Part shown: positions 2,104 to 35,600 of the stretch, in pieces
How the letters are laid out: each line of letters starts with the position of its first letter
How positions within the stretch are numbered: the first letter of the stretch is position 1
NCBI GenBank assembly: GCA_965649765.1
Contig: OZ287751.1
Location: 66,960,001-67,024,000, forward strand
DNA length: 64,000 nt
Reading direction: 5' to 3'
Source of the DNA: Bispira polyomma
Lineage: Eukaryota
Translations under genes and position numbers: made by a program
The notes under the pieces: generated by a model
Told to the model about the DNA's origin: nothing
Databases searched by the model: none
What the model saw: only the letters and a program-made list of their open reading frames with translations

Positions 2104-2451
2104 CAGAGATGGGTTAAATGTACATAAGGAATAAACCCATGGTGTTATGTATACACATGACTACAAATATATACATGAGACTACTACACAAACAGATATT
2201 ATTAGTATAGGACAACTCAGGGTGCAACATTAACATAGGCTGAATGGCCACACAACTTTCCTTATAGGGAAACCCAATTTACGCACTGGCCCGAAAATTG
2301 ATTGTTTTTACACGGTTAAGTAAAATTTTGGCCTGGGACAGTAAAAACCTAGCCTAAACTACCTCAGTGGTCCTATACTGATATTGCTCCATGGGAAACA
2401 GTTAATGTTGTTCCCTGTTATTTAACAAAGACTCAAAGCCTGCATGCTTGC

Positions 2452-2604
2452 CTTGTCGAGTTCCTCTGTACTCCCAGTGACCTTGACCTGACCTCTGTCC
2501 TGCTCCCCGAGGCCCTGCAGTGCAGTTGTACTTGCACTCAGGTCATCAATGATACGGCTCAGGCTGGCAATGTCAAGGTCATCCGTGGGAGTAATGCTCC
2601 CATC
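2452..2604 (-). CDS. MTSS1: MTSS1 coding exon 13 (153 nt): DGSITPTDDLDIASLSRIIDDLSASTTALQGLGEQDRGQVKVTGSTEELDK
   Basis: acaccccag|GAT phase 0 fits exon 12; ends at probable GC donor AAG|gcaagc or reads on to TAA at 2422. Confidence 0.72.
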
Positions 2605-8600: not shown

Positions 8601-11600
8601 CAAACCAAATTCGGACGCCAGACGGCATAGCACAAAAATAATAGTACCCCCAATGTAGGTGATGTGTTTCCAGGTATAGAGCTATCATTAGTCTGTTTAT
8701 CACCTCTCACCCTCTAGCTGTCCCTTACCTGTGATGGCACCGAGTGCACAGTTTGTATCACTACTTCACTCATCTATAGAGTTACCATAAGGCTGTCTAT
8801 TACCTCACACCCTCTATCTGTCCCTTACCTGTGATGGCACTGAGTGCACACTTTGTACCAATGCTCCACTCGTCTCTCCGGCGTAGTGCGCCGTGGGTGT
8901 GGTCACTTCCTCTTCCTCGTCCTCCTCGGGGATGTCCTCATGGCGACCTTGACATTTTTCCATTTCTACCGCCATCTTGGCAAGGTCATCTTGGTTCACG
9001 TACACAGGGTGCTGGACAACTACAATAAACGAGAGAAAACAAAAGTACAGATATTAACTTTGGGGAACATTGGTATGTACTTCACACCAGCCTTCAGCAA
9101 CTTGCCAAGTATTTACTGTAAATTTTCCCATATGCATACTGATCCCTAAATTTGAACCCACAACTGCAGAGGTGGGAGGCAAGTGTTAACACTAAACTAC
9201 CAAGACCGAAGTAAATGAAAGAAGCCTAATATACACAGTACATTCTGCAATAATTTGCCAATCATTTTGGACAACGTTTTGCCCAGTTATTATAGAGCAT
9301 TAAGGAACAACATCATTGTCTATCTAATACAGGGAAATACAGTTTTGTATGAGGATTGCTCAAAGAAAAATAATAATATATCATACTATGTTGATTGTCT
9401 CACTGCCTTATAACAACTTCATAAAATAATCTTTTATAACCTCAAAGGCTGTTTCTATATATGCTGCATCCAGCATCTGGTAAACCGCTGTGATAAGTCT
9501 GCTATAACTATGTAACAACTGTTTTGTTATAACCATGGTACCACTCCAAATATAGAAATCAGTACCTTTTGTAATTATTGCATAGTTGAACGTGAATTTT
9601 CAATATTTTAGACCTTTTTTTAGACTGTTATATTTTGAACTACACTGTGTATAAATTAATATAATATTTTATATTTTACACTATATAAATTACAACATTT
9701 AAATGATATTTTAAGTGAATAATGAAAGTAAAGCAACCCTCGTGCTGCATATTTAAAAATTTGACCACTCAAGAAGACCAAGCATACCATCCTCGTCTTA
9801 CAGACTCGGATATTATTGCTTTGTCTTTTCTCGTGGTAAAATTTTACTATATGCGTCACTCGGGTAATTTAACGATTTTATTTTGTGTTGTGATAGAGTA
9901 ATCAGTTAATGGTTGATTTACTGATTTACATTAATTATAAAATTATTATTCGATGAGCCTCCTATGCTCTGAAAACAAATCATCTCCAAATTGACCCGTG
10001 CTGTTTCAAAGTCTGTCAAAAACGGCAAAGAACGCAAAGATCGCTAACGAAATGGAAAGTCTGGTAAACCCTCCAAAACGGTGCCTATGTTGAATAAAAC
10101 TGTAGACAGTAAAGTTCCTCAGCTATAATACATGCTGCCCAATGAAAAAATGGACAGTCTTCTTCTCTTTAAACTTTCCAGCAGTAGATCGAGCTAGGTG
10201 TTGACACAACGGCGACCAAATTAATTGTGAGGGGTATCTCGAGGACGAGAGTTAAAGGGACTTCCGGCGCATGCGCAGTGAGGTTGGTGAGAATAATTTA
10301 AGTCAAATCACAAGAATTGTCTTTTAAAAAAAAGACTTTAAGTGATTTTTTGGTCGAACATATTTGGGTGTACTAAATTAAAGCATTAGTGAGGATAAGG
10401 TAAGGTGTATTTATCGCAATAAAAAAAAGCAATTTATTTAAACAGAACAATTTTTTAAATAATTCTAGCTTGTTAATTGATGGTTCATTTCCTATCAAAA
10501 AACAAAAAGCTATTGGACATATGATACTTTGATTACATTATAAGAGCAAGTTAATTTATTTGAACAAAACATTTTTCAAAATAATTCTAGTTTGTTCTTG
10601 GTGGTTCATTTCCTATCATAAAACAAAAAAGTTACTGCACATATGATACTTATATTGGTCTCCCAGAAAAATTTCCAGTCAATTTGGTTATTTGTGAAAA
10701 TGAAACTCGAGATAATGGCACAATTCTATGAATTAGTTTGAAAGTTCCTGTTCTATTACAAATTGACTATGACATCATTTTATTCTTTGCTATTAAATCG
10801 GCACATTTTGTTTAGCGTTACAGTCAGTGGGACCTACTAGAATTACATATATGTTAACCACACAAAGAAAACATCTGCACCATGTACCAAGCTTATCTTA
10901 CGCCTATAATAAAGTCATCAGAAACTTGTTAAATTGTCCCCAACATTGTGTGCCCTTTATCATGAACTCTCTTTTAAAGCCGGGCTCTCACACACAAGCA
11001 TCAGAGCGATGGAATAGTACAAATTGAGACTCATAGTGAACCTTGGAATATTCAAACCTTGAATATCCTTAGAAACCATATATTTTGGATGGATTAGCTG
11101 TACATTTAACGTGTTCATGCAGCAATCATGCAACAGTCGTGAAGGTACATGTATTTGTATCTATTCTTCTTTGTCACTTTCCGTTGGGAATCGTATACAT
11201 TTGTACCTTTCTGCAGACCGATTGGGGGCTATACATAAACTTTTTGTCTCCCAATCGCAAAGCATCCAAGGTTATCAAGAATTTCTGGATCATCATTAAC
11301 CTCAGTTTCTTGGACTTAATATTCTTTCTGTAGTGAAACTCTAAACAACATAGACTTCAAACTGAATTGTAGTAGATGACAAAATTTCAACATTTATCAA
11401 ATACAGAAGACCTCACATTTAAGCCAGACATTGAGTTCAGTCGGAACTTATTAAAAATAATTTAAACACAGTTTCAGTGTGTGTGACTGTGTACAAATTG
11501 ATACATAAAAGCTAATTAATAATTATACCTATTTTTATTTTGCTACCTTTGTCAAGAAAGCTTTTTTTAATAATAAACAAAGGGAAAACAATAACAAAGA

Positions 11601-14600
11601 AATAAACAGCTCTTCTAGTTCATCAAAGTCATTACACGTTGCCGTTCACATGTTCAGAATTGCCTTGAAGTTTAAATCCAATAAAATGAAGGTCTCTTCT
11701 AAATTGGCAAGGTTTCTTTTTAAAACCCGATTTCAGCCCTCCAAGAACTTTGTAGCCCTTTTATGGACGCCAGCTCTAATGGACTTAATGTGAAGTAATC
11801 ACAGGATGAATCACCAGCACAGAAAATTGGATGTGGATGGACTGTACGGAGGGAACCACTTTTATGAAAGCTAGTTTTTTTACTTAAACTATCTACATAT
11901 CCCTTAAACGTTTTAACACTGTATGAAACTGTCACTACTGCTATACTGTAGTACAGAATAGAGTGAAATCAGCACAGTAGCAGCCTTTGTGTGAAATGTA
12001 CATCATCTATATATATATATAATATACAGGGTACTTTGCCCGATTCAACAAAAACCACAAAGTCACATAATGTCAGTTTTAGTGCTCAGACATAATAAGA
12101 CTTAAATCACAAAGACCCATGAACAAAGTACCAGAGACTGCAGAGAAAATGCTATATATTTAGTGCATATAGCAACAGAAACCCATTTCATTTCATTTTT
12201 TTATTTTCTCTTTGTTTATTATATGTTGGCTGAAGTCTGCCCCTGGCATTTACCATGTAGGTTATATAAGAAACTCTACTACCAATTTACAGAGAAGTAG
12301 ACTCAGTAAAGTAGACTCTCTGTAACCAGAATCAGTAGAAGACCAATTTCTTTACCAATTGGAACCAATTTTCTGGTCCCATACAGTCAAAACATATTAG
12401 TTTTAAATTAGAGCATACGTAGATGTTATTTCTAACTCCTAACCAAGTCCTATAAATAATAGTCATTTGACATGTAGAGATTCTAATGTACCCCACTAAT
12501 ATGAACAACACACAGTTATAATAAAACAACATCCTTAGTCTGCTAAAAGAATTTCTTTGATAACTGTTTCTGTATTTTTGTTTCATTATATCGTGTAACT
12601 AGTGCATGCACATATTAATTAAGCCTGATATTAATGCTGTTAACTTGATTACATGTATATAAATTGAAGAAGATGAACTTTTATTTCTACTTAGTCTTGT
12701 CCACCCACATACAACAAAAAAGACTCACTTGATGTTCTTAGTAGTATATCACAGAAGGTAATAGAAGGTAAATCCCCAAGGCTAATTCTTGGTGGCAGGA
12801 GAATATATCTTATAATTGTGTATTTGTTTTATGTAAGGGACCAGTGTCTTGCCTCTTGATTTATGATTTTGGCAAAAAAACAAAGTAGGGTTTTTCTAAA
12901 ACACTGAGGTCTTTTAAAGGTACAGGACACATTCTAGATAGATATAATTCTTGATATAATCAGTCTTTAACACAACTCGTCCAGATTTACTGACAGTCTT
13001 CTTAGTGAGGTGCGAGGCGACTACTCTAGACTACCTACGAGCATGGTTTCATAGCTTTCATGAGTACTCAGATCTGCATTACACTGTGTGTGTGAATGTA
13101 TATTGAGTTGAATTAACTTCAATGCAGATTATGCAGGTTTTCCCTGCAAGTGATACTTAGGATAACTCCTAGATCTGGCGAATAAAAATTAGATAATTTT
13201 CTAATGGGAACATTTCGTCTTGCCTCCCTAGTGTTCACTTTACATACAATATAAAAGGTTGTACATAGAGTAATTGGTTTCTAACATATTTACATGCTTT
13301 GCTGGTAAAGGCCCTTACACTTTAAACATGATTAAAGGTTTTTGTATATTTGATGTTTGAGTTCTTATTTTTACACAGCACAGTCTAAAAGTCTGATACT
13401 CGATGACAAAATCTCACACTTGAATTTTCTTTGTACACATAGCCCAATTTTGTTTTTTTTCTACTTGCTACTCATCTTGTCTTCAGTAACCTTAACAGAG
13501 GAAAGAAACTTTCTGTTTCCTCTGTAAAACCTACCAAGAGGGCTGGATCTCGAGCTTTCTCAATCGCTGCCACTATGTTATGGAATAGTCTCCCACTTGA
13601 GCTTACATCACTAGAAACACTTTCTAGCTTTGGGTAAAAACTTTAAACCGTTCTCTTTAAACTCGCTCACCCCCCTTTTTGTTTGTCTCCCTGTGTACCC
13701 CCACATCCATCCTTAGAACCTGGCTATGTGTTTTATACTTCTTCATTGGTTAATTAATTTTGTTGTTGCACTTCAGAAGATGCCCGAATCAATAAAGGCG
13801 CGATAAAAATATGCAATACCAAAATAATACTCACCTCTATTTGGGTCGTGTTGTAGTTTGTTTCCAAAGTCCGGGACCATAGGTGGAGCCACTGGTTTTC
13901 CCCTGGGTTTAGGTCCGGGTATGGGTGGCTTGTAGTCCACTGTATCATAGTTCTTCTCCTTGCCTTTGACCGAGGCCGTCTTGATGTTGTTAATACATGG
14001 CACGGCGTAGTGTGAGTTCTGCTTCACTTCCATCTGCTGCTGATGCTGTTGCTGCTGTTGTTGTTGCTTGGACAGTACTCCTGGCTCAGGGGGTTCGAAT
14101 AGCTGAGAAGTCAGGGCAGGGCGGTTGTGTGACTTCTCATAGGCCGTGGATATGGTGTGTGGGCGCTCCACACCGCCTTCCTGTTGAGAGTATGGGGCTG
14201 AGGGGGGGTCGGGCCAGTTAGACCAGGTCGATACGGAGGAGGAAGGGTAAGAGGGGGAGGGGGTGGTGGCATTACTGTCTGTACCACTGCCATTACTGTC
14301 TGTGAGGGAACTCTGGAAATAAGACAAGAAACTTATACCATCACTGTCTGTTTCTACTGTATATGAGAGAAGTCTGGCAATACGACAAGTACCTTATACC
14401 ATTACTGTCTGTGGGAGAACTCTGGAAAAGAAGACAAGAACCGTATACCATTTCTGTCTGTGAGGGAACTCTGGAAAAAACTAATTAACACCATTACTGT
14501 GAGGGAGCTCAGTGGAAACCCAGAAAGATCAAATCTCTTGCATGCTGACCTATAATGTTAATATGGGACTATAGAGGGACAAAATGTTTACCGTCTCCAC

Positions 14601-17600
14601 CCAACATTTCACTCACCCAACTGGTACAAATATTTCTCTAATGCTATTAAGTTTTACTCTTCAAACCTTCAACAACTTGGCCAGTGGTTAGAATTTTGTC
14701 ACTCTTCTAAAAGTGAGACCTAAAAGTGATATTGGTCATCATGCCTACATTATTGTTGTACCCTGTTCTACCCCTACTGTTGGTATCGGTTCAATGAGCT
14801 CTGCAAACTAACTGTAATACTAACCATTCATAAACATCTGTTTACGAGTAAAAAAGCTTCTAGAAAAAAAAAAATTATGATCAAAACCCTGAATATATTT
14901 TGTCTATATATATTTTTCCCAAGATATGTAAGCAATACTACAAATTATTTAGGCACCAGACTTTTATAGTGGCACTCAAGTACTGTTCAAATTTCTTCAA
15001 AGACTACCGTAGTTTGAATGTATGTTTTGTTCCACACGCAACATTACAACTATATGGTACAAAATGGCCAGAAAGCCATATAATAAGTTTTCAGACTTTC
15101 TATCTCAGTTTGTTATGCAAATACTCAAAACACAAACTTGCTTTTGCAAATGAACTGATGGTTTATACAAAATTTGTACTGGAAATTACAGTAGAAGAAT
15201 AGCTTTGCAACATGAAAAACTGTTGAGGAAAAAAACAACCCCAAGCTGAATTCAGGCCAGCTAAGTGTAATCACACCTGATCTGGTCCATCATTGCAATT
15301 AAAGTTTTTGTAATCATGTATATACATACTGCATTTAAACTGTACTGGACCCTTAAAAATCGATGTAATGATATTTCCAGAACCATTCCATGGCAGTTTG
15401 AAGCGTGACTAAATGGTGACTAAAAAATACACAGTTCTATGGGTTAAGGTGCCAACTAAATGAAATATTGTCAGAAAATCTACAGTTCGCAACTATTGGA
15501 GGGAAATTTAGTAATAAGTTGAGAGTAACTTGGTGAGAGGGAAAAAATTTGCTTGTTATTCAGTGTGCTAGTGTCATTTGCTGTCAAAACATACATACAC
15601 GCTGTTATAGCACATTTATCATTACCTCTGCTAAGGTGACTAAAACACACACAGTTCTATGGGTTAAGGTGCAGACTGAGTGAAATATTGTCAGAAAATC
15701 TACTGTTTGCCATTATTGGAGGGAAAATTAGTAAGCGCTGTATAGCACATTTATCATTACCTAAAGAGGTTATGTTCTTATCTATGTCCATTGGTTGGTT
15801 TGGTTGTTTTTGTCACCAGGATTAAATGCATTGTGACAGTGTGTAGGTTCTAAATGACCTTAAGATTGAGCCTCAAATTATATCCATGATTTTTGATTTT
15901 TAAGTCATAAGTCGATGATGTCACTGTGCACTAATTCCATGTCTGGGGATAGAAGTTGCACAAAGGTCCAATGTATTTTTTTTATCCTTGGGTTCATTGT
16001 ATATCTCTGACTTATAGGAATTCCTCTCTATGTACTATGACAACTGGCTTTTAAATTATGTAACAGACATACAGTACTTAAAGCCTTCAGACAGAAGTAA
16101 GTCAGATATTTGGTCATTTATATTCCTGACAAGACCACCACAACAGACTACTGCTCCACCACCAAAGGCTTTACACAATGGATGGAGGTTCTACCTGAAG
16201 GCAATATGTTGTACGTCTGGCAGACTGTCAATAATTAAAGTGGCCAGAGATACTGAACACAAACTGGCTTACAGTGAATATTATACAATGGTGGAGTCCT
16301 TCTTCTAAACATTTCAACAGTTATTTAATAGTATTAATAGTTATTTAATAGTATAAAAATAGTCCTTTCTAGTGTTCTATATGATATAGTACATAGGTGA
16401 CATTAGTCACACAAGCACTAATAGACAGGATTTTATTAGTTTAATAAAGTTTGGATTTAAAGTCATTTTGAACATGTTTGCCTTATATCACGACAGAAAT
16501 ATTATTGGTGGAGGATATCAGAGCATAGTAGTTGGTCAGGGTTTTTCTGCTCTGCAAACCACCAGCCTTCAGCAAGTCTGCTGTCACCTTTCCCACATAC
16601 ACACTCAGGACCAAGATTTAAATATTTTTAATCTTACATTGCGATCGCCACATTTTTTGGTCGCATAAACAAATACTCCATGTAGACATACACATCACTA
16701 ACCTATGGCAAGTACCTGAAATGTTTCTACTTAAATGAACCAATGTCATCAGAGATGACTCTGAAGCAAAGTGTAGCATCTTACTAAAGGTTAAGAGGAC
16801 TCACTTGGTATCAAAGCAGTGTAGACAATATACATGCAGAGAAAAAGGTTAATCTAGCCCTCAAAATAACATTCAGTTCAGAACATCCATATCCATCTAG
16901 ATATCACAAACATTGGATGACTTTAGCAAAGCAACAGACAAGTTAGCATAGAGACATGAAATACAACATGTAGACCAGCAAAATAAAATACATTCAAAAT
17001 GACTTTAAATATGAAAGAAACAGCTTCATTTTACCTGTCTATGCATTTAGCTTGCACTTCTTGGTGTATGCAGGATGTGGACTGTTTTGTACTTATCACA
17101 GTAATTCTCTACCAAGGGATTAAAAGGGTGTTTACCAGGCAGGTCTCAAGTCAGTAGTTTGTACTTGTATTGTATTTGTGATTTATGGGCCAATGATGTT
17201 GTCATCTCATTCAAATAACTGAAAAGCGGGTTTAAAAGGGCATAAACAGCTGTTTTATCGCAACCTGTTTGGTGCAGCAAGATTAAATTTGGATAATACA
17301 AGGTTTGCGAACATAAGAGGGATTTTACTATAAAACAACAGGCAATTGTAACTTTGGGAGAGTGAAAATGTTTCTTTGTTTCTTCTAAAATTGGATATAT
17401 GGACACTACAGGTTCAACTGGATAAATTTTCTCTGATTTAAGTACTTACCAAAGAATTCTGTGTAGGAATGGATGGCCACACAAATATATATACCAAAGC
17501 CTGCCATTTGGATACGGTTCAGGTGTCACACAATATCCCAATACGTACCTTTGTTATTGCTAGCACACCTGGCGAGGGAGGCCTCATACACACAGCTTCC

Positions 17601-20600
17601 TGGGAGGTGAATCCAGAGTCTTGTGAGGACACACTGGACAGACGTACCATACCAGGGGGAAGTGACTGGTAAAATACAACAGGCCAATCATTACTGGCTT
17701 GTCATAGGGTGGATACAATAGCCACTTGTCAATGGCCGGTAAAATAGAACAGCCACAGAATTACTCGCTTTTTATAGAGCGGATAAAACACCACAGCCGC
17801 TTCTCAATGAGCATTAAAATACAACAGCCCTATGATCACTGGCTTGTCATAGAGCAGATAAAACATGACCGTCGCTTGTCAATGACTGGAAAAATACAAA
17901 AGTAGCATAATTACTGGCTTGTCATAGAGCAGATAAAACACGACCGTCGCTTGTCAATGACTGGAAAAATACAACAGTCGCATAATTACTGGCTTGTCAT
18001 AGAGCAGACAAAACACGGCTAGTCAATGGCCGGTAAAACAGCCGCCTCATTACTGGCTTGTCACAAGCATGTACACTGGTTACTCGGGTGGAGAAAGACT
18101 TCTTGCTAAAGCTGCAAGTCGCATCGATTATCACCCACACCGACTCAATCTAACAGTCAATGCATCGAAAAACAAATTTTAACTAAACAAAGTTTTCCTA
18201 TCTAAACTCAGTTATTTTTTTCAACAGTATAACTTTAAATTTAAATGTAAGATGGACCTAAAGTTACAATTTTGTCTAATTATTTATACTTTCTTTGGCA
18301 ACAATGTGCTTTGGGCATATACTAAAATTCGGCAAACAGGTAGTAAAATATACATGATCGAGTCGCAAAGCCTGGGCTTAATGCATCGCTATATTGGTAA
18401 CAGTCGACCAATGCATCGATCTCTGAATGAATTGTTGCAGCTTTACTATTCCAAATATTCATCAAATATAACTGACTTGTTAATGTGGCGTGAAAAATCA
18501 ATTCCAGTTATTTGACAAATAAATTCTTTAATTTGCTTAGGTAGAAATCAACATTGATTGCACAATTTGTTTTTTAATGAGTTTCCCTTTAAAGAAGCTA
18601 TAGCTTAGATATACAGTCAACCTTGTTTTACTATAAAGTAGTTTAATCTTCTTCAGTTGTCAAAACTTTGAAAAGTGTGAGCAGTGTCTGTGGTTAAAAC
18701 AGATAATATTTGATGATAAATGATGTCTTTAGGTTTTGCTAATACTTCCTGTATGAAAGTAATTAACAAGGTATATGTTTACATTTGTCAATGCCAAAAT
18801 AGTAGGAATTCTGTAGTGTATAAGAACAACACCAGTAAATTGAGACATAAGGCGACATCACACTTTTATCGCTTGAGGCACGTGAATTCTGTTAAACCAA
18901 TTTAACATCAACTTAAACCTATGAAGTTAGTTTCTGGAAGTATGTAGAACAATGAGATGCAATAATACCCAGTAATCTCTAAGTATAACATTTGGATATA
19001 AAAAAAATAGTCCTGAATGTTTTCCATTACTTTCTGAGACAGAAGTCTACTCTAAATGTCTATTGTAAACAATTTCAAGGAATTTTATTTTCCACAAATA
19101 AATACATCACTTTTCATCCTTTTATGTCAACGCAGAGAAAAAAAAATATAAGAAAACATGTATCTCTGATGACTTGGTCCCATCAATAGCCATCAACAAG
19201 TCAAGTTATACACATGATAAATTCACTTTAAACACAACACTGTGACGAACCTTGTAACTCAATATACAAAGAGAACCTATAATTAAAGATAATCATATGT
19301 ATAACCAGTGTTTTTTTATAAAACTGAACACAACATATAGCATACCGTTCCACTGACAAATTAAAGCCATGGTTTATTTTATTCAAAAGCACACTATCTC
19401 ACACCTAGAAGCAGATTTACTTCATATCTTCAACTTTTATCACAACAAAGCTGTAATTTTCAAAAAAGTTTTAAAAAAGATAATTATTATCTTTCATGCA
19501 CTAAAAAGAACACGATTGGATATCTATACGTGCTCCAAGGAATAATCAAAAGAATATTCAGTATTTATTCAATATTTAACCACTTAAACTATAAGCAATG
19601 AACATGCAATTTGAAATTCATGCATAGCTGACACTTCATGAGAGGCATACCACGTTTAACTAGAGCAACAACTATCAGAGTAGTAATCACCCAACTTTCG
19701 CCTTCTCATTTCCATTTTTCAGGGAAGTTGGTTAAGCTTTCTGCTCTGCAAACTACCCGGCTTCAGCAAATCTACTGCAAAGATGGAAGGCAAGAGCCGT
19801 ACCTCTAGACCAAGCTTCTTCCTATGGTTACCATACACTTACCAGTGAAGGGTTCCTGAAGTTGTGACTTGGAGATGGCTTGTTGCTATGGTTACCACAC
19901 ACTTACCAGGGAGGAGTTCCTGTTCCTAAAGTTGTGACCTGGAGAGGACATGTTGGTGCCTCCACTAGAGGAGGAGTTGATGCTGCTGATGCTGCACATA
20001 CTGGACTTTCTGGAGCCCAGAGAACTTGGGGAACTGGGAGGGGTCTGAAAAACAGTGGGAAAAAGTGGCCATTAGAGACCCACAAAATGATTAGAGTTTG
20101 GAATTACGCCAGACACTTCACTTTATGAATTTCATTGCTATATTCCCTTTGGAATAAACCCTCATGTTAAGCTAAGATAGACGTGTATTTTATGTCGAGT
20201 ATTTTACTATGACAAATAGTACCACACAGCCAAAATAGACATGCAAAGACACAAGGTATGATATGATAAGTCCTGCCTAACACACCAGGTAATTCCTGAT
20301 AGGTCCAGCCTTGTGGGTCTTAGATCGAAAGTCCCTGGTTCAGGCAAGTCCCAGACAAAGTAGTCACTGAGGCATATCTTTCTTGGGCAAGATGTGAACA
20401 TACAATTGTCTTTTGATGATGACTAGTGATATGTTGTAAGACTAGCGCTTACCTTGGCAACAAATGCCTGACAGGATAGATTGTCATTGGTACAATACAC
20501 ATATTTTAATCCCAAAACACTAAAATTTCCACAAGTGGACACCTCTCTATATTGTCCTCACCTGATAGGTCCAGCCTACACCCCCTGTGACCTTGAGGTC

Positions 20601-23600
20601 AAGGATGACTTGTTCGCTGGCTGCCGGCAGTCCGGCGGGGTCACTGGCTTGTAGACAGAGGTGTTGTAAGATCTCCTGTAGATGAGTGACTTCCGTCAAC
20701 ATGTGGATCTCCTCATCCTATAGAAAAAAAAGAATTTGAATATAGTTGGGTGTTTACATCGCTTACAACAGCTTAGATTATATCACAACAACCAGATTGA
20801 ATGGTGGAAGAAGAATGGTGGTAAATCACCGAAAACTTGCACAGAATCTCTCAGAATCTGTTCTAATGAGAAATAAGAAAGTTATGTTTGATGTAAAGGT
20901 GATCCGTTCTGGCATGACTACATCTGAACAATACTGGAGTTTTCTCTTACCACCACAGGCTTCAGACAGCTGATGAACATACAGAAGCGACTCCTCTCCT
21001 CTATCAGTGCATTCCTCACTGCATTCTTCTCCGTCTCTTCAAGTACCTGGTACTTCTCATTGACCTCGTGTAGAGCCGAGTCCAGGCGGCTCTGTACATC
21101 CGACTTACCTGGACAGGACACATGACATAACACATGTATTAGGATGGGATCGCTTTTAACAGCGATATATGATGTCATGATAGGCAGTTTATTGGTGGAA
21201 GCAAGCAGAACAAGGTAATTGGTCACGATTTCTGAACTGTAAACCACCGGCATTCAGCAAGTCTACTGCCAAGTTTATCACATAGACTTCGCATTTGAAT
21301 TTAGTTGGGTTTACATCGCTTTCAACAGCTTAAGTCATATTCCGATGGCCAGATTTAAGAGTGCAAGAATCCCCAGTGCTAAAGAACTTCAAACCACTGA
21401 CCTACAGCAAGTACCTGACAATCTTTCCCGCATGAAGGTACAAACAGGATTTTAACCCACATTGATGAGAGACCAGTAATTGTGAACCTAACACTTCTAA
21501 CCACTAGGCCAGCGAAGTCCATGTCTGAGCTTAGATTCAAAATCACAACTGCAAGGGTGGGAGGCATGAGTGTTGCTAATCATATTGTAGTGTGATAGTT
21601 ATCAATAGGTCACTGTATTCTACTTTCAAGGTATAATGTACTTTAAATACCTCAGTTTTAGGTGTAGTGTGTCACACGCAGAATGTTAAAAAAAAATATT
21701 AAACTAGGTTATCTACATTTGGTAACTACAATTGGTAATTGGCATTTATCATTGTTGGGATTTCCCCTTTGCATGGTTAATATTTCTTAAACACAATTGT
21801 TGATTAGACTAAGTGTAGTATTTCTTACCAAAAAAGTGTTTAGAACAAAGAAGTGCATAATTCACGAAAATTGTAAATTCAAATTTTAATGGCCTGGGAG
21901 CAATTTATGCTGCACCAAAAAATAGCTTGTACATGTCATTACTTCATACATCATGTTCATACACCTAAACAGTAGTAGTAAACACTGCTTCTTATCAGTG
22001 AGGCTATCCATCACAACTGGTGATTAATTAATACAAATCATCATATCTATAAAAACAATGACATAAAACTATTCTTACAAGTAGCATTATATACATCATA
22101 GATAAAATACAATGGAAAACAGGTGATAGGTGTGCTGCTGTTAAGAGGTATAGATTACAAAAACATTGTTAGGTTATCTATATACATTGCAGGGTGTACT
22201 GTAAGCCTATTGTACAATGTTTAATGTTGGTTAATTATTTGAATTAGCCTCTTAAAACTTAATACTGAACTTTTCCAATTATTTGATCATACATGTATTT
22301 CTAATTACGATAGCTCTTTTATCCAAATGAGTTAGCAATCTCCACACTTAGAGAGATTGTGCACTAAAATTCTAATTTACCGATCATAGCTTTGGAGTAA
22401 AGCTTTTTTTTTATCAAGTGTGCATATGTACAAGACAATCAAAGATGATATGTTGCCAGATGATTAAGTTAGCAAAATAAATAAATAGCGTTAAAGATTG
22501 CGACTGCTTAAAACTTTGCTATATCTTTTAGTCCATGTGTCCTTATGTATGTACCATAGTGGGATCTCCAAGTATTTTGACCAGTTGGTAATGTGGAATC
22601 CGTGTTCTAGATTGACACCTGGCATGATATAAACTCTTCAAACTTGATAGCCATGAACAATAGATATCACATACCATGACTGGACAGTATAGTGACCAAT
22701 ATTTTCCTTATATATTATACAATTTTAAAGCTAGTGTTTGGACCAATAGCAAGGTTCAAATCAAGAGATGAAAGAAATATTTAACTGATAACCTCAATGC
22801 CTCTTGGCAGTGAAATGTGTGTCACAGTGTACCACATCAATCAGTCCCAATCTCTACTAGGAGACACCTTATCCAGTAAAGCAGTCGCACATAGCTAGCC
22901 TTGCATACATCTCAAGTTTGTCAGATAATCTCACTTTAAATTTGACCAATCTTCTACTTGCCAGGAATGAACCAGGCAATACAGTACATTCTGATTTATT
23001 ACATGTACCGGTTCATATGTTTTGAAAAAGTTACAACTCAAATGAGACTCTGCAACAAACTTGAGCTGTAAGCCAGGGGCCATATTCACAAACGGTTAGT
23101 CTTATCTTAGTATTGAGCTTAAGATTTTGGTCTTTGATTTTGGTCGGAAAGGTTAAGAGTTTGGTCTTAGTCCCAGTGACAGTAAGAAATGATCATTGAT
23201 TAATGTTAACTTGCTCTTGACACTAAACCTAACAGTAAAGTCTTACATATTTTAGATATACATGTAATTGTAAAGGCTAAGACCTTTTGTGAATACGGGG
23301 CCCCAGGCTATGGTGTAGGATGTGAGTGAAGGTAACAACAGAGAAGACTAAGGCACTACTAGATAAGCAAAGTGTGGACACCTCTGATCTCACCCTTTTT
23401 CACTTTCTTCTGGAGTCGGATGGTGTCTGAGGATGCCTTCTTAATGTCAGCACGCGCCTTCTTGTAGTCTGAAATACAGGAAGTAAAGTATAGCTATTAA
23501 ACGTATGGTCAAACACTGTAGCTTACTTCAGTTTGGATTTAAGCAAGCTTTCAACGCGTTTGTGTCACATCACCAATGGCCAGTTCACCGGTTTTTTTTT

Positions 23601-26600
23601 TTGTTTTGTTTTTAATTGGGATATTTAACGTCCACTCTAGTACCTGTTTAGGTTATATTGGGATGGGTAGTTGGAAACGCTGGAGGAAACATTGCATACA
23701 GTTGATAAAGGTTCTGCACTGAAACCAGCGGCCCACAGTAACGAACTACCACATTTCCCCCATAGGCATCGACAGGAGTCGAACTCACGCCACCCAGAGG
23801 TGAGAGACCAGTGATTGTGAGGCGCAATGCTTGCTAACCAATAGGCCACCACGGCCCCTGTTCACTGGTGGAGGAAATCAGAGCAGAGTAGTTGGTCAAG
23901 GTTTTCCGCTCTGCTGCCTCTGCAAAAAACGGCGTTCAGCAAGTCTACTGTCAACATTTCAACATACACCAAGCCAAGATTTGAACCTATGACTACATAA
24001 GTGGAAGGCGGGTGTGTTACAACTACACCACTGAGTCCTCCAGTCAAACAATATAAACACTACTACTATTTAAACAGAACAGTACGTAGACATAAACCTC
24101 TATTATCTGAATTATACAATTTATAAAAACAGTTTTAGTAACCAAAATGTACATTTTCCGATTGTTTTTTCATACTTATTGTCGTAAAATGCTTTTTTTT
24201 TTTACAAATTTGCTCTCCAAAATCTTACATATAGACAAAATATAACATCAAAGGACATTATCTTGTGGGCACATCGTTGCTAGGGTGTTGCTAAGGAGTG
24301 TACACTTACTCATGGTAAAGCATTAGTTGACGTCATTTCTGGAGCAAATGATGTCAAACTAACGCAACAAGAGAGGTCTACTGTGTCAGGTTGTTCAAAA
24401 TTAAGTATTGTTCAGCAAATTTGTCTTAAAATGCGACTAACTTTCTGAGAAATCTAAAAAATTTTCCTAGCTTTGCTTATACATCCTGACTATCAATCTC
24501 AACATTGTCATTTGACATTCTATGTGCTATTTTTATCTTGGTTAATTTCAGTCTACAGATCCCCCTCTAATACAAATTCCTTTTCTAAAGGCCAGAAAAT
24601 CTGTCCTCCTCTTTCCAGATACATATAATAGCCAGGATTTTCTTGGTTAGCCCCGGAGTATTCGGGGTGATTATCTGTATACAGTCTCATATAGGAAACA
24701 AGTAATGGACCATGTCTCTCTGCCTTAGCCTCTGAAACATGTGCCGGGAATTTTAGATCAGCTAGGACAAAACCATAGTCTGTACAGGAAATGGCCTACC
24801 AGCCCACTTGTATCATAAAAATAAGTTTCCACCCACTGAGGATACTGGAGTAAAATGGTTATTGGCGTTATCAATATATTTTTTTTATAATTTTTACAAA
24901 AGATGTAGCCCAGTTTATTGTAACTGCAATAATGATGAATATATAATTAGTAGTAGGTAAATCGTTTATCGATATCGACAATATTTATTGTTTGGGCTTT
25001 TGCATGCCGATATCGATGTCTAATACTAACACATCGATATCATAAGTGACACATATTTCACCGTTGGATCACATTTTTACGATAGTTATAATGACATTTT
25101 AAAGATATTACCTTTTGAACAATGCATAATAACCATTTTATATCCATTTTTACTTGTAAACCTATTTGGCGGTTCTCACTTCCGGTTTCATTCAGGCAGG
25201 TTTTTCGTTTTGAAGATACGTTCCACTTTTCTTAACTTTATTTCTATGTCCCGATATTGGTCGATATTGAAATAATTGTAGGTTTGATATCGATCTCCAC
25301 TAACCTAAACGCTTTACCCACTAATAATTTGGTACAAAATATATGGATTTATTATATAACATTGACAATAGGTATTGTCATCTATTGTATTATGCATTTT
25401 TTTAACGTGCCTTATTGATGCAAAGCAATTCTTTTAAAGTACAACAGAATCAATAAGAGAAGGTACAGGTAACCTATAATCAGAATGTCATTAGTCCACA
25501 CAATGATGTTAAATATATTTAAGGGAATCTCTTCCTTGAAAAATGTCAACTTGAAGCTGAATACGAATACTGTAATATCGTCTAAGCTAATTTTTCTAAG
25601 TGGTATCTACAATTTGCAAAGAGCTCAGCCCTTCAGCACTCCAACAACACATTTAGACTAAGTTCCGCTGCCTTTTAGCCCCATTTAGAAAGAGCAATGA
25701 GTTGAACATTTCTGGTGGGTTCTTCAATTCATCTCATTCCGACTCAGGGATAAGAGAATGTGTATACCAGGCATAAAACCCAAAGACTCCCTACTTGAAT
25801 CAACTGAGGGCAATTCTGGATCTGAAGCCTTTAAATGTTACAGTGAGCTATGTGGCAAACCCTACACTTCTGGTAAATCTTTCAATGACATTAAATCCAA
25901 AAGAGATCAGATTGGGACTAGGTTTAATGCAGGAAAAGGTTAAAAGTACTCCCATTTGGGTCTCTGAGCTAGAGATGTGGAACAGTTTATTTGTTGGTCT
26001 CCGGTTTTAGTGTTCTCCAACTGATGTACTCCTCTAATGACAATCCAGAACAAGAGTTGTCTTTTAAAAAAGACAAAGGCGCACAGTGTGAAATACACTA
26101 ACATTGATATGGCCACTATAATATACTCAGGCCCCAGGCTGCGCCTGATAACAATAAATCTGACACCCGGGTTGATTGATTCCAACCAATCCATGAATGC
26201 TTTACATATTTTCTAAGATGGCGGTGCCCTTTTCATAATGCAAAAAAATATCAGGCTGAACCTGATAAAAATCCTTACTATAAACAGAAGCAGGGAAAGG
26301 CTTTTATTTACCATGAACAAATACATACGCCTACACTTTTTTAAATAAAGCATTTTTATGTATAGACACGCAGAGTATGAATAAGTTGGCGGTTTTATTC
26401 TGTATTATAACTGAAACATTTACCGCATAAAAAACTTTAACATAATATAATAGAAATCTTAGAAACAACAACTTTTTGATTCAGCTAAATTTTCATAAGA
26501 TATTGATATCAAAAAGCGTGTCAGTATTTTTTATAAACCTTAGTTTTTATTAGTTAGTATCACTTATCATTTGGATAGACCAGGAAAAAAACATCAGATC

Positions 26601-29600
26601 ACAACATGAAGTACTTTATCTGTGTACAAACATGTACAAAAGCTGTGTAAACTTCCGCCATCAAATACCCACATATATCAGGGACCATGAGGACAAAATC
26701 ATTTTAGCATAAAGGTGACTAAACACCTTGAGCCCTCAAATAACTGTGGACATGAGCCCAGTTCTTCTGACAGAAACCAAAGCATGAATTTTCTTACTTC
26801 TCAGATAAATGTAACCCATTCTGACAAGGTGATTAAAACAGAGAATCTTTAGGTGTGTACATATGATATCTACACCTCAGTCCTTTATCTAAGCATAAAA
26901 CCTTTTCACTTTAGGATCACTATCCCCTCTATCACATTATGCTATATAATATATATGATAAGAGTAAATATCTGAAATACGCCACTGTATCTAAAATTCA
27001 CCACATAGAGAATGTTGTGTTTTTTGGTAAAATTGTGGGTAATATTTGCTAAAATTGAGATTTCTGTGACTATTTTGCCTTTCTTACCTAAATTCCAGTT
27101 ATTGTTTGTTTGCCCAGTTTTTATTGATTTGCCTTAAATTTTCTAGAGGGTGAGGAATTTCAGATAGAGTGGCAAATTTTAGATTCTTGCTCCATCTGGC
27201 CTTCATATACATATTGCCTTTTTTATGTCAGTACACACAAAACAATATCTATACCACATTACAACACAACCAGCCAGCCTTGAGACGGTCTGACAATCTT
27301 AGGCAAACATGTCAACCTATACCTTTGTACTAGAAAAACCATCTGACATCTGCTTTTTATGGGCCAAAGGCAACACAAAACAGCTGAGAAATAACAATCT
27401 GCTTATTATTATAATAAAACACTGATAGCAACAGTTCAGAAAAGTCCCAATATCAACTAGTTTTTTTAAAGACAACATGTGTGCAACAAATTATTTTGTA
27501 TCAACACAAGTTCATATTTAGTCAATTTCTCACATTTTCAGCATTATAAATAGAACTCCTATCATTGTTTGTAAACAATGACACAGTTTTCCAATGATAT
27601 TCATAAAACTACATCTGTGTGCCAAATGAAAAGATACTTTTTCTATTATTTTTAAAAACGTTGTACCAAGCCAATGAGTTTTTAAGTATAACCTCAAAAG
27701 AGGTCGAAAATGTCCAATGTAAAATGAATTCCAGCTTTTGTGTTGTTGTAGAAAAGAAACCTCTCTCATGGTCACCTTGCATATTATAGAGACTGTATAC
27801 ACACAGGATTTTTTATGACACACAGAGCATCATCTACCACTTGTAATAAAATATAATATAAAATCATTGTTAATAAATTATTTTTAATAATCTTATCGGT
27901 TCTTAAACTGACAAGAGCTTCTAAATTTACTACTTATAACACCTTTAATCATTTCTATATATCAATTAAATAGTCTTAGCAGTATCACACGTCCAGGGAC
28001 CGATTCATTGATAGAGAAGTCACATGACTAAAATCTCCTGGTTTTTCCGGGCCCCCACTACCCCCTGGCTATTGTTTGGATGGTATCAGGGTCTAGGGGG
28101 TTGCATGTTAATCTACTCACTTAGAAACAGGGTTTATGATTTGTTTCATGAATTGTTTATAAATGCCACACAATGATATAATTAAAGACACCTCTTCATA
28201 CACCAAAGAGAGGATGGGCTTAATGAAAAAAAACCTTAAAACAATCCAATAAATCTCAATTGCGGTTAAATATAATTCACAACATAAAGCCGTCACTTGG
28301 ATTTAAATATAGTAAATCATACCTCCCTTAAATTGTGCTAATTCTGTACTTCGTTTAAGCATATATAATTAAGAATCCTATTTTGTTGGCTCAGCACTTA
28401 AAGACTCTTCACACAGTACACTGCAGGATCTCACACGCATATTATTGCCGAGGGTTAGGAGATGGCGGCGCTTTCATGCTGACCTTCCGACGTTTCTCCA
28501 CTGACACCTTTGTACGAAAGTAATACCCCAGAAACAATACCAGCCCATCCCCCCCCCATCACCACCAGACCCTTTGTCAGCATATATACTGCTTAATGAA
28601 AATAGACCAACGTGTTAATATTTATGAGGGCTGCTAATTAATATTTCTGTAATAGAAAGGACAAGGTTGGATGGAGATGGAGAGATTTATAGCATCGCCA
28701 TATAAATACAGTGCATTAAAACAGAATAGGATCCTCTATTTTCCGAACATGTGGGGGAGAGAAAGATTGTTTGGATAATAGAAGGTTCATAAAGCAGAAG
28801 AACATTTTTTGTATAAAATCAGAAGAGCACTCAAGTAGAGTGTACATCTCTGCCAAACTTAGTACCATTACCATGGCGACTGTACCATAAAAATTACAAA
28901 CAAATCCAGGAAAATCCGCCCTTCTACCCAGATCCACTCTAAACTTTAATGCTCCATTTCTTCAACAAATTTCATGTAAATTTGTGACATAGTTTTTGTA
29001 GAACAATCCTAGTGACAAGCCAACTAACCAACGGATATGGGCCAAAACATCACCTCATCGGCAACGGTAAATAAAAACAGATCAGAACTTTTGGAGACTA
29101 AAATATAAATGTTTTTACTTCTGTAGCATCACAATCAATGACTGGACATCCTTTATGGTGCACATCCAAATCAGTATGTGAAAGAATAGACAGACAGGAA
29201 AAAAGCTTCATGATCAGGGTTCAGTCGTGGCCAGCAAAAGGTGGAAAAGTAAGTTTGATGTGTTTTGAGTTTTGTCCTAAAGCCTGTAATTATTACCTCA
29301 AAAAATGTGAAGACTAGTAGAGTTTTAATAAATTGAAAATTTGAATAATATACATTCTTTGAAGGTGGTGTAAGTTCAAGAAGCTACATGTGGATTATAG
29401 TAATATATCAATATTGTCAACACATGTGTACTAAAAGCTACAAGCTGAGGTGAGAGTCATTCATCTTTAAACATCATCAAATGTCTTCTCTAGTGATCAG
29501 CTGAACTGATCAAAAGACATTCAATGACATTTTAAATGAGTTTATCAGGACTCTCAACATAAAATAGACCCTCATTCCACATCACATGACTGTTTTGTTT

Positions 29601-32600
29601 GAAAGTAAAATGGTAAGGAGAGCTCATAGTCTATTGGTATAATTTATGGTGATGAAAAGCCTCCTAATAATTACGCCAGTTGATAAAAGCTAGTATGTAC
29701 TGACTAATTATCTGTAAATATATTTGTGCCAAAATTCTATAAGCTTTATATTTCTCCTATGTTGATCAACAGTCCCCAAGTTTCTTTTGTATACCTCCAA
29801 AGAAAGCATGAAATGTATAAATGTGATTATTCATTTCTAAATATATCAATGAATAGGTGTAGGAATAGCTTTATAAATAGCCCCAAAATTATATGGTGGG
29901 TCTTTTTTCTGCCACCTTATTAAATGGCCATTATATACTACATCAAGTCTATGGGTCCAATAGAGCTGATAATCAGTTATTTAATGTGAGCAACAGATAC
30001 AACTGGCTAGTATTGATTAGCTTTCATGTGTCAAAGCTAATATGATTTTTTCATTTGTACCATAAAACCTTTAGTACCTACCATGGCTGGTATTCCGAAT
30101 TAATCACTTATTTGATAAAGTATCACAGAGGCTTGGACATGTATGAATATACTGCAGCAATAAATCTAACAGTTATGGTAACCTACTACAATATTCAGGC
30201 AGATCAAGTGACAGCTTAGAGTTGATCATCTTTGAGATTTCCAGCTCATATGCTTGTGATGCCCTTTATGCATCACAAGATTCCAGTCTTTTCCTTTTAG
30301 TTTTTTTATACAATTTAAATGTCTAAATATTCAGGGGTTTTCCCCGGATGTTAAGCAGAAGTTCTGACCCTCTACTCACACGTTACCAATGAAGCTACAC
30401 CATTGCTGGATCCTTTTTATCCAGCGCATATAGTAAAATTACCTGAGTGGTGTATATTTAAAAAATATGACGAAAAAAGATAATCAGTACAATTCAAACC
30501 AGAAAGTGACCTTTTTGCTATAATATTAAATTTGAGGATTATTTCAATTTTTTTGGTCAACCTAAAATCAAAGCGGTTGTACAACAATGGCTAGAAATGG
30601 TATAAAATTAACCAGACCACAAACCCCAACCACTTCTGAGATCTACTTGTCGACACATATCAGACGATCCTCAAACTAAAGCATACGATCACGTCATACT
30701 GACGTCATACGTCAGTATGACGTATCGCCTACAAAAATGGAAAAATATGTCTGCGCAGATCTGACCCCTAGATCTTTTGTTTGTGCGTTATTCATGAAAT
30801 TTCTGCTTAAATTTAAGCGTGTGTATGTGTAATCGGAAAAGCTGTTTATTCTTGTCAGTGACCAAAAAGAAATATTCAGTAATAAAGTTGGGCTAGTGAT
30901 GTTTTTACCGAGATTTGCTGGCTCTTATGTAGGGTTACATCATCAATGTTAACAGCTATAAAACAGGAATAGGATTCCCAGAGTACCATGTCTCTTTAGT
31001 CGAAATATTTCAAAAAATTGTTTTTATATTCTTTTTTTTTAGCTTGTCAAATGAATCCCATTCATTATTGGCTGTTATTTACTAATCCGTCTGTGGTAAC
31101 ACGTTTTTTACCCTGGTTATGAAAGGGGTAACAGATAATCATTACTCTTAATACAGTGAAGAACTGGGAAGGGGTGAGAGGGGGGATAATCATAAATCTC
31201 ACCAATAACTAGGATTGGTACAAGTGGGCTGTGAAGTGTTGAAAGAAGTGCCACCTTGAGAATATACAGAACAAAGTTTTAGCCTTGTCACAGGCTCAAG
31301 TCTACTCTGAATTATGGACCCAAGACCAGACCCAAGACTAGTGGGGAAATTGTTCATGGATATCGATAATATTCATTGTTTGGGCTCACAGGTGCTGATA
31401 TCGATGTGTAACATCTGTACAACAATTTTAATCATCTTTGAAGTTAATACCTTTTAATTAAGAAATTATAAAGCATTTTAATCTGTTCAGTTTTGTTTGA
31501 GTATATTTTCTTGTTTTAAAAACATGATCCAGTCTGTTGGAATGTCCCGATATCAGCTGATGTCAAACTAATTTGCCTTTGATATTGAAATTGTGACACA
31601 CACAAGTGATTTACCCACTATCTAAGACACATGAAAAATCTAGTAGCAAAAATTTATTAATACTTCAAGACGATGTGCTTATCTAGAATATGAAAACACA
31701 AGTGTGGTAAAATGGTTGCAGGCGTCATAGGCCACTTATTATAGTATTGATGGAAACATTGGGCTCCAGATACAAAATTATCTGACATTAAGTCAAGAAG
31801 TCTGACTTTATATTTACAAATTTGAACTTTATTTTTATTGTCAGAAAATCCCCAAATCTTTGACTCCTACTGCTCTGATACGTACAGTGGCATTGGCAAT
31901 AGTTAGCTTCTATTATTACAAAGAAGTCTGGGTCAGGAAAAAAACCACTGCAGGCGAGTAGACAATGTATCTAACAAAAAGCCCATTCTGAGAAGCTAAA
32001 TGTATATTGGGAGTGGGAGTGGGGGAGTGGGAGTGGGGTGGGGGCTTTCTCCATAATCTGAGACTTGGTCAAGGCTAGAGAACAATTCCACAGAGAGCAG
32101 TTAGCTTCTCCAGTTTGTGGCTGGGTAAATCTGTAAAGATCTCTTAACCTTTTGGCCTGAGGACCAGGCAGGCATTAAAACCAGCAGTGAAGCACGCACA
32201 CACAGCCTGGCTTCATGGATTCATCCTTCAAACAATACAATCATTACTGGGTTGAATAAGGTGCAGATTTCATGGCAGGAGGAGGAAGGGATTTTATTAT
32301 GATTGCAACTTCCTACTCTTCTTCCTTCAGTAGTGTGGAAGTTCTTAATTACAGGAGCTATTTTCCACTAACTAAAAGCAGTTTACCTTAGAATCCAAGA
32401 CAATGCCAACCCCACACTACAGTAAAAACTTGTATTGTGTTGAAACAGCAAGACTGTTCAGATAATAGAAGGGTCACAAAATAGAAGACAAACTTTTGTA
32501 TCAAACAATAGGAAAATATAAATTCTGCAAGAGTAAAAAGTATGTTTGTAAAATCGAATATTTGAACATTAGAAGTTTGGATGACAGATGTAGATGTACT

Positions 32601-35600
32601 ACAGTATACAGTAGAACCTCTATTATACAAACTTCCATTTTTCTAATTATTTGATTTGATGAACTCATTTTTTATTACTTTATACAGAAATATTTCTTCT
32701 ATTTTATGAACCTCCTCTTATTCAAACAAATTCTTGCTTTCCCAACATGTTCGGATAATAGAGGTACTACTGTATTTCACTCTACACCTTCCCATTCTCA
32801 AATCAAAGATGGACTTTAAATAGGATAGTTTACAACAGATGGTACCACTGATAATATCTAGGGTCTAGGCATCAACACTTTTGCATATTTTTTTAACAAT
32901 CCCCTGTATTTATCATAAAGCTTCAAATAGTATTATTTTTTTCAACACAAACCATGTGCATCCAAAATTCTAACTCATTTACACTTTTGGGGTAACTTTT
33001 CTGCACTACATATGTAATAAACTCCTTACAAACATTGGCGGGCACACACAATGTCACTCATGATGTGCTCAGCCTTAAACCTCTGGCCCCTAGACCTCTC
33101 CAGTTTCTGTCATTAAAAGATAGGCTGGTATGAACCACACCACAGAAGGCATATAGTTACATCATACAAAACACTTTCCAAAACATTACACAATCCCAAC
33201 AGGCTCAGTTTACAACTTCCATACTTTATAGCTTTGTCAGATAAGACCCTTTTAAACTTCAACGTGAACTTTCACACAATCAAATATAACTCATCTAAAT
33301 ACCTGGAGGGGTTTCATATGTAAAAGTATTAAGATATATAGGATTCTAACTCACGTAAATAATGTTACTCTGGAATTACAGGATTAAACCATACTGAAGT
33401 ATAGAACTTTTACGTAAAACAAATGTGAGGTCTTTAATGACTATGACCTGTTATCAATAAAAGTTTGTTCACTCTTGTCACTGATTTTGTTCATCTGTAC
33501 CCATAAGATAAGATAAAGGCTGGCATTCAATGGTCTCTTGTGTAGCTTAAAAAGGGGTCCAATTAGTTCAAGAAACTGAAGTAAAACTAACAAATTATGT
33601 TCCTGAACATGCAAATATTCTACACTAACATTTCTTACAGCCAGTTATCACTTATATTCATAAATCACTATATCAATCGTGATTTTGTCAAAACAGTAAT
33701 GTTGTGTAACATTAGCATCTAATATTATGTTTTTTTTCCAACTTATTATCAATACTTACCCAGATATTTCTTTACTGCTGCCATGTTACTTTCTGAAATG
33801 CTTTATAAAATGGGTTCATATTAAATCTAATCTAATAGCTTAGCTAATACATGTATCCTGATTTGAGTCTTGTTAGTGGTTCATTGTTACTTGGGTTGCA
33901 TTTTTCAGGCTTTGCCACAGCTTTGAAATACTTCAACAGTAGACATATTTAACCCTTTTGACCCCTATGTCAATGGCATTTGTTATTCCTAGAATCTCTG
34001 TCTATCGTTTGAAAAAATGCCATTGTTGAATGTCTTGTTTTAGTGACTCCAGCTATCTATAAAACACCAAATAAATTTCGGTCAATTCTCAGTGATAGTT
34101 TTTTTGTCTTGGGGTCAAAAGAGTTTATTTTACTCAATTATTACATAATACCAGCACAACCCACTCTCAGTCTCCCCCTCATCACTCCCAATTGTATAAA
34201 AATTAACTTAAAGAAACTAAACAGATAAGTTGTTTGTTTCACATTTAACTCTGGCCATTATGCAAGTAAACACATCTGCCATACTGTGATGATACATTTT
34301 GAAAACAAACCCCCTCATTATTCTATGAAATACTGGTCCTGATATTAAACAATACAACCTGCATGCCAGCACATGATTATAATACCTACAACAACTGGTC
34401 CTGGACATATTGATGACACACATAAACTTTGTCTCTGTGTGAAGCCAGTTACAGTAGGTCTCATGTGATCAGATAATACACAGCTCAGATGTACTACATT
34501 ACAAAGTGTAGTCTGTGTAACAATGATAGGTATTGTATGAAGACAAAGGGGTTACTCAGTGGTACATCAGTTTGATACATGTGTCACAAGATACTAGTGC
34601 TATAAGTTATAGGATACAATTCTAGGGTTTTGCTTAGTAAAATGAACATAAATACCTTGATAAGGCAGGCAGTTCAGAATCTTCGTATTATGTTTATACA
34701 CTTATTCATTAATCAAAACAATGTTATTAATGTCAAAGTCATGACAATGTGATTACAATGTGTCAAAATGAGGTCAGAACATGGAACTGGTCGTCCACAC
34801 TTATTATTATATAAAATTAAGATGAAAACATTTTTATCATTTAGTTACCATGGTAATAGTTTTAGATTTCAGTTGAAAGTCACTTTCATCATGTCTTGTG
34901 TCACATCACGACAGGCAGTTCACTGGGAGGAAATCAAAACAAGGCAGTTGGTCAAGGTTTTCTGCTCTGTAAAATCACCAGCCTTCAGCAAGTCTACTAC
35001 CAACTTTTCAAATACACACCAGGGCTGAGATTTAAACCCACAACTGCAGAGGTGGGAGGTCAGTGTCTTACCAATTACAAAACTATACTATGTCTAATAA
35101 TATTAAATTGGTAATCTATCTCCAAAGCACATGTCCAAATACAGCTATTCTAAACTTGCAGATCTTATAGTCTTATAAACGACTGCAAAAAGTGCAGCAC
35201 AAGCCATGTAGCAATGCATCAGTGAAATATTTCACAGAGTACTTTACGCCTGACATTCTTTTACTAGAATCAGTTATCTCAAGTACAGAAAGCCATCAAT
35301 AACACTAAACACGTAAAACGGTTTCCTAGTGTGAAAGAAATGCTCTTGCAGCATTCAGAGGGAATCATCTTGTACCAGCATGAAATATGTTCATCTATAT
35401 TCTCTCTGTGTAAGGGGTGGGTGCAACAGTTGGTAAGCTCAACGGTAAAAACAGATACATTGTTATAAGAGACTACATGATAGTGAACATCTCTGGGACA
35501 AAAATTCACATATGATTGCAATCTAACCTCAGAAAATGGAAATCCTTTAACAGAAATGAGATAGATATAATACTAATTGCTGTCAATAAGAAAATGTTAA

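Follow-up and report, generated by a model that had tools for sequence, protein, structure and literature searches.

The window analysed here is a 64,000-nucleotide stretch of the Bispira polyomma genome, whose assembly comprises 1.04 Gb in 75 contigs, and it carries on its minus strand an MTSS1/MIM-like gene in which 12 exons joined at GT/AG boundaries form a single open frame. The translated exons resemble MTSS proteins of Octopus, Argonauta, Mya and Ptychodera, with exon 7 reaching 73-79%, and the motifs are nearest to those of mollusc proteins. A match of exon 7 to the Pfam IMD family (PF08397; E 1.4e-14) identifies the N-terminal IMD domain, and in the homolog P0004 the IMD match stops at residue 237, within the region corresponding to exon 8. 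Searches by tblastn with four homologs located exons 1-8 and 10-12, exons 1-8 matching MTSS homologs, and our spliced aligner, whose splice matrices were trained on these MTSS sites themselves, recovered the first ten introns. MTSS1/MIM I-BAR genes encode a C-terminal WH2 motif. A probable exon 13 of the minus-strand gene lies at window positions 2422-2627, where the in-frame acceptor would be 2604 (weak, at 2.7 bits) and a similar out-of-frame AG stands 23 nt upstream; a search for further exons in the 10 kb past the window yielded weak alignment only. The exons, and the repeats found at their edges, are as follows.

20951..60820 overall, minus strand: I-BAR exons 1-7; homolog match, open frame; no junction copies
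60820-60749, 59968-59907, 59120-59047 and 44250-44166, minus strand: I-BAR exons 1-4
40692-40601, 23468-23394 and 21108-20951, minus strand: I-BAR exons 5-7
20562..20717, minus strand: exon 8 (end of the I-BAR domain and linker); homolog match, open frame, spliced aligner
20295..20312, minus strand: copy of the 3' end of exon 8, 17 nt exact, without GT
19907..20044, minus strand: exon 9; open frame, spliced aligner
19800..19961, minus strand: exon 9 donor duplication, 64-bp period; GT kept, 10.9 bits like the real donor, out of frame
17663..18068, minus strand: minisatellite of 75-bp units with the acceptor of exon 10 at its end
17549..17665, minus strand: exon 10; homolog match, open frame, spliced aligner
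14279..14500, minus strand: exon 11 acceptor array of 49-61-bp units; three AG-bearing copies, all out of frame
13835..14312, minus strand: exon 11; homolog match, open frame
8829..9019, minus strand: exon 12; homolog match, open frame
8675..8875, minus strand: exon 12 donor duplication, 100-bp period; GT kept, 13.5 bits like the real donor, out of frame

When local copies spanning a junction were scored (+2/-3), five of the 24 junction ends of the gene reached 34-127 and the other 19 scored 23 or less. These five exon-edge copies are genuine. They involve the donors of exons 8, 9 and 12 and the acceptors of exons 10 and 11, the same five exons named in a preliminary description of this DNA, which was also borne out in finding none beside I-BAR exons 1-7 (0/14 ends, all at most 23). 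At exon 12 (score 127, offset 100) and exon 9 (score 60, offset 64), the 3' end of the exon was copied together with its donor at the 100-bp and 64-bp periods originally reported. The acceptor of exon 11 has copies scoring 71, 56 and 50 at offsets of 61, 158 and 109; of the four to five units first described there, three are clear and a fourth is faint. The acceptor of exon 10 does lie inside a minisatellite, as had been noted, with a 75-bp period, 4.8 units and copies scoring 65, 57, 52 and 42, but its unit is nearly all intron and includes only 3 exon bases. The AG is gone from the two nearest of these units and kept in the two farther ones, which outscore the real acceptor (8.9 and 7.0 bits vs 5.7).

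The copy at exon 8 (score 34, offset 266) differs in that it ends one base beyond the junction, at the G of the GT, where it reads GA, and it is therefore a copy of the exon end and not of the donor. It is non-tandem, 17 nt long and 266 bp distant, and its spanning of the boundary is marginal. The second, more decayed echo proposed at 20264-20286 reaches a score of 18, which is noise level. Templating of the exon 8 copy by mRNA was rejected, as the bases that follow the copy mismatch the start of exon 9. At exons 9, 10, 11 and 12 the repeat unit spans the boundary and is arranged head to tail in the flanking intron, as TRF arrays at exons 10, 11 and 12 and as the 64-bp repeat at exon 9. Seven of the ten scored copies keep their GT or AG; none of the seven is in frame, and the sequence they would insert contains stops. 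The copied sites lie near 19843 (exon 9), 17886 and 17961 (exon 10), 14374, 14422 and 14471 (exon 11) and 8729 (exon 12). A separate in-frame 21-nt internal repeat (TDSNGSG/TDSNATT) at the start of exon 11, window 14270-14304 on the minus strand, has a core in common with the acceptor array and is a wholly exonic duplication surviving in a low-complexity region. Searched across the genome, the arrays of exons 10, 11 and 12 each matched the window alone, a result that is no proof of rarity.

That such copies might be products of assembly is a virtually negligible prospect. The copies have diverged from their originals, with TRF matches of 79-85%, and read-derived contigs span the copies at exons 8, 9, 11 and 12 and reach 17896 in the exon 10 array, with 0 differing letters. 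These contigs come from three runs on two samples of one study, possibly including the source sample of the assembly itself, which is the one point in favor of an artefact; the listed contigs of both samples agree with the assembly, with the proviso that contigs drop rare variants. Over window positions 8000-21500, the listed contigs of both samples show no differing letters across ~13 kb, which suggests low heterozygosity there.

To place these copies on a wider scale, we surveyed dynein heavy chain and myosin loci outside the window, 1.6 Mb in all. Introns in these two gene families were called by our own spliced aligner on homolog profiles, so that the junctions are predicted from sequence, and introns flanked on either side by well-aligned, gap-free protein sequence were retained (322 of 554, 94 of 189 and 115 of 238), giving 1,062 ends. 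A copy is carried by 182 of them (17.1%), 88 donors and 94 acceptors, and the 5/24 of the window is unremarkable against the sampled rate (P 0.32 at 15.7%). Rates per gene vary widely, from 0/42 in one dynein stretch to 8/24, with 3/86 in two myosin II-like genes. The repeat units measure ~40-300 bp and combine ~24 exon bases with ~35 intron bases, the spare copy being intronic, and most copies are two-unit and decayed. Donors and acceptors are affected equally and independently: both ends of one exon are copied in 12 cases against 12.5 expected (335 exons), and both ends of one intron in 18 against 19.1 (531 introns). Since copies do not co-occur at the two ends, the copying is neither exon-wide nor intron-wide. 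Duplication of whole exons was considered as a source and accounts for just one of 111 cases.

The MTSS copies belong to a class of repeat already known as mirages, the founding paper of which is reportedly Canestro 2002. Tandem repeats spanning exon-intron boundaries were so named in lancelet Adh3, with further examples in globins, troponin C and PGBD5 (PMC3087553, PMC3902484). The lancelet genes are described as spliced normally, with their duplicated splice sites silent, and mirages were proposed as a route to intron gain (PMC3087553). The suggestion in the preliminary description that the copies supply raw material for new exons and introns is thus a published hypothesis (PMC3087553); in the MTSS gene and the sampled loci, we saw no case of a new exon or intron derived from them. 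As in B. polyomma, the amphioxus mirages (Adh3, BflGb6, BflGb9, troponin C, PGBD5) consist of tandem boundary-spanning units at either exon end, with intronic copies that often keep AG or GT, and the reported units of 10-160 bp (PMC3087553, PMC3902484) compare with ~40-300 bp here. The sections cited concern single loci of another animal and state no rate, whereas the copies described here occur at 17% of 1,062 ends and are mostly two-unit and decayed. Splicing fidelity and length instability are reported for amphioxus. Outside the founding 2002 study and that of Gao and Lynch (2009), the literature searched yielded no genome-scale rate of mirages or enrichment test. A human parallel is the 37-bp VNTR of F7 intron 7, in which the first unit straddles the exon-intron boundary and the donor copies downstream are functional yet silent, the most upstream site being chosen (PMC1557585). 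As reported there, this is one locus with donors only, and it leaves the silent upstream acceptors, 94 of the 182 copies here, unexplained.

Whether junctions are enriched in copies depends on how these are counted. The preliminary description had proposed a process focused on exon/intron junctions, to be detected as an excess in base coverage, and by that measure there is none: in the dynein set, 17.4% of ends (112/644) and 20.7% of deep-intron positions are duplicated, and in the pooled data 17.1% and 19.2%. Coverage counts each unit of an intronic array but one per junction, and it was therefore dropped as the main test in favor of a per-array count, in which each array contributes a single unit, the one nearest the exon. 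Counted in this way, the dynein set has 111/644 against 28.3 expected (3.9-fold, gene bootstrap 2.9-5.2), the myosins 20/188 against 9.7 (2.1-fold) and fresh dynein stretches 51/226 against 12.0 (4.2-fold), the fresh set being drawn largely from further portions of genes already sampled, together with three new loci, and having two introns that lack a matched background. Pooled, the 182 copies stand against 50.0 expected, a 3.6-fold excess, and to this extent the idea of junction-focused duplication has statistical support. The copy rate drops to baseline ~50 nt from the junction.

Neither GC content nor dilution by dispersed repeats explains the excess. The GC-matched comparison that had been called for leaves 33.8 expected against 111 observed with each array counted once, and the background rate is lower, not higher, in non-repeat intron (3.7% vs 6.2%). 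Exchanging which unit is taken as the original gives a similar background of 5.0%. A methylation-driven origin is likewise unsupported, exon CpG depletion being uncorrelated with rate over 15 dynein loci (rho -0.07). The excess shrinks with the length of the exact run, from 2.7 at 20 nt and 2.6 at 25 nt to 1.4 at 35 nt, with 2.3 and 1.4 in the replicate. In the window, which was chosen for this feature, the 5/24 ends compare with 2.1% intron coverage (P ~1e-4), and the intron background is 0.86% with each array counted once.

The position of the five MTSS copies had raised the alternative that they are tolerated only beside exons for disordered protein. They do occupy 5/10 ends past the I-BAR domain and 0/14 within it, a partition of chance probability 0.006-0.04 that was chosen post hoc, and exon 11, among the exons concerned, holds the in-frame 21-nt repeat. 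However, the sampled dynein and myosin regions are mostly folded motor domains, and copies are found at 17% of their ends; disorder is therefore not required. Clusters and gaps like those of MTSS are also present in the sample: at least five copies occur in 18/509 ten-end windows, which come from 3/15 dynein genes, and zero copies in 91/449 fourteen-end windows. Moreover, the decoys that keep GT or AG shift the frame, and protein disorder would be unable to buffer them. We therefore abandon the restriction to disordered protein as very improbable; the idea is compatible with our sample of folded regions only in a weaker form, as a modest extra effect of disorder.

Another alternative is that selection maintains the copies, either because they serve as reserve or regulatory splice sites or because they are partly coding. 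GT or AG is kept in 140/182 copies (77%), and copied donors are stronger than uncopied ones (10.4 vs 8.7 bits, P 0.001). Additionally, differences between exon and copy in the dynein loci (L005-L083) are 3.1 times as frequent at 4-fold as at 0-fold sites (bootstrap 2.2-4.1, and likewise with CpG removed), above the 1.6-2.6 of simulations and thus exceeding the prediction for neutral copies. Against this, mismatches at GT/AG (7/128) are about as frequent as at second codon positions (59/971), which is what a neutrally evolving copy of an unchanging original would show; offsets modulo 3 (45/57/38) show no frame bias, and 6 copies are in frame without a stop; and the seven MTSS decoys all shift the frame and introduce stops. 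Maintenance by selection is accordingly improbable in our judgement; to go by frames and mismatches, splicing likely ignores the copies, which are likely harmless by-products of duplication. In strength, 44/85 copied sites equal or exceed the real site. Exons that bear a copy are also longer (190 vs 163 nt), and the longer exons and stronger donors may mean that some duplications have been purged. The copied exon portions are shorter than simulated ones (24 vs 39 nt), but the simulated units are longer too, and the difference does not establish selection against long exon copies.

The remaining question is whether the junction excess reflects birth or survival. Duplication could be even along the gene, with those anchored at an exon edge staying recognisable for longer because the original is unable to decay or be deleted. 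Local duplications are indeed dense in the genome, taking up 19% of deep-intron positions, coverage is no higher at junctions, and the excess is smallest where copies are closest to perfect (1.4, interval 0.7-3.2). Yet by our own reasoning a simple analytic ceiling for such an effect lies at ~2-fold, against the 3.6 observed. We also ran simulations of introns flanked by exons under constraint, allowing for substitutions, indels, duplications, deletions, insertions and homology-driven expansion and collapse; the simulation is our own and simple, and several runs are off the real background rate. Twelve runs with uniform duplication, in which exons were frozen and deletion, turnover and homology-driven collapse were included, gave ratios of 0.21-1.35, whereas boosting junction-spanning births 4- and 6-fold gave 2.6 each, and the same pipeline returns 3.7 for the real dynein set. 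Even duplication with prolonged survival is, in light of these runs, the less likely account of the excess. The per-array excess and the uniform simulations together make a raised duplication rate at exon edges the best inference. The 6-fold simulation also declines with exact-run length (2.6, 2.1, 1.5), less steeply than the real data, so longer survival may contribute. We lean, by a little, towards a birth bias that is probably accompanied by some survival effect.

Our overall reading, to which we assign a probability of about 0.55, is that these are mirage tandem duplications, present at about one-sixth of sampled junctions, likely unused, and likely born more often at exon edges than deep in introns. 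Local duplication, through break fill-in or slippage, would create the first copy, which unequal exchange would sometimes expand into an array; as the exon-adjacent site would stay in use, the copy would decay without being removed. Duplications including the exon edge would arise several times more often than wholly intronic ones, and our guess is that breaks or nicks near exon edges are the cause. In mammalian cells, breaks with complementary 3' overhangs give rise to small tandem duplications via CST, Pol alpha-primase and NHEJ (PMC8355091), a tested source of local tandem duplications. The abstract of that study draws no link to splice junctions, and applying this route to exon-edge copies would be by analogy. 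A more ambitious proposal, about which we have somewhat more doubt than belief, is that an exon-edge mutational process, involving breaks or nicks from splicing, paused polymerase or exon-positioned nucleosomes, duplicates junctions at no less than four times the intron rate. One junction in six would then have a second splice site at hand, and the genome as a whole would keep a permanent stock from which introns could be gained and splice sites could slide.

The five MTSS copies themselves probably do nothing, and the type of repeat is known; it is the rate that is the useful part. If the 3-4-fold junction excess is a birth rate, it would tie DNA repair to splice-site position and would make intron gain by splice-site duplication directly testable, in a genome offering very many natural trials. 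The silent upstream acceptors that match the real one in strength also constitute a ready test of 3' splice-site choice. Local duplication covers ~2% of MTSS introns and ~19% of the sampled dynein and myosin introns, and at one of the sampled loci (L085, positions 958-1750) a long tandem array, seen in the open reading frame listing, abuts a myosin head exon.
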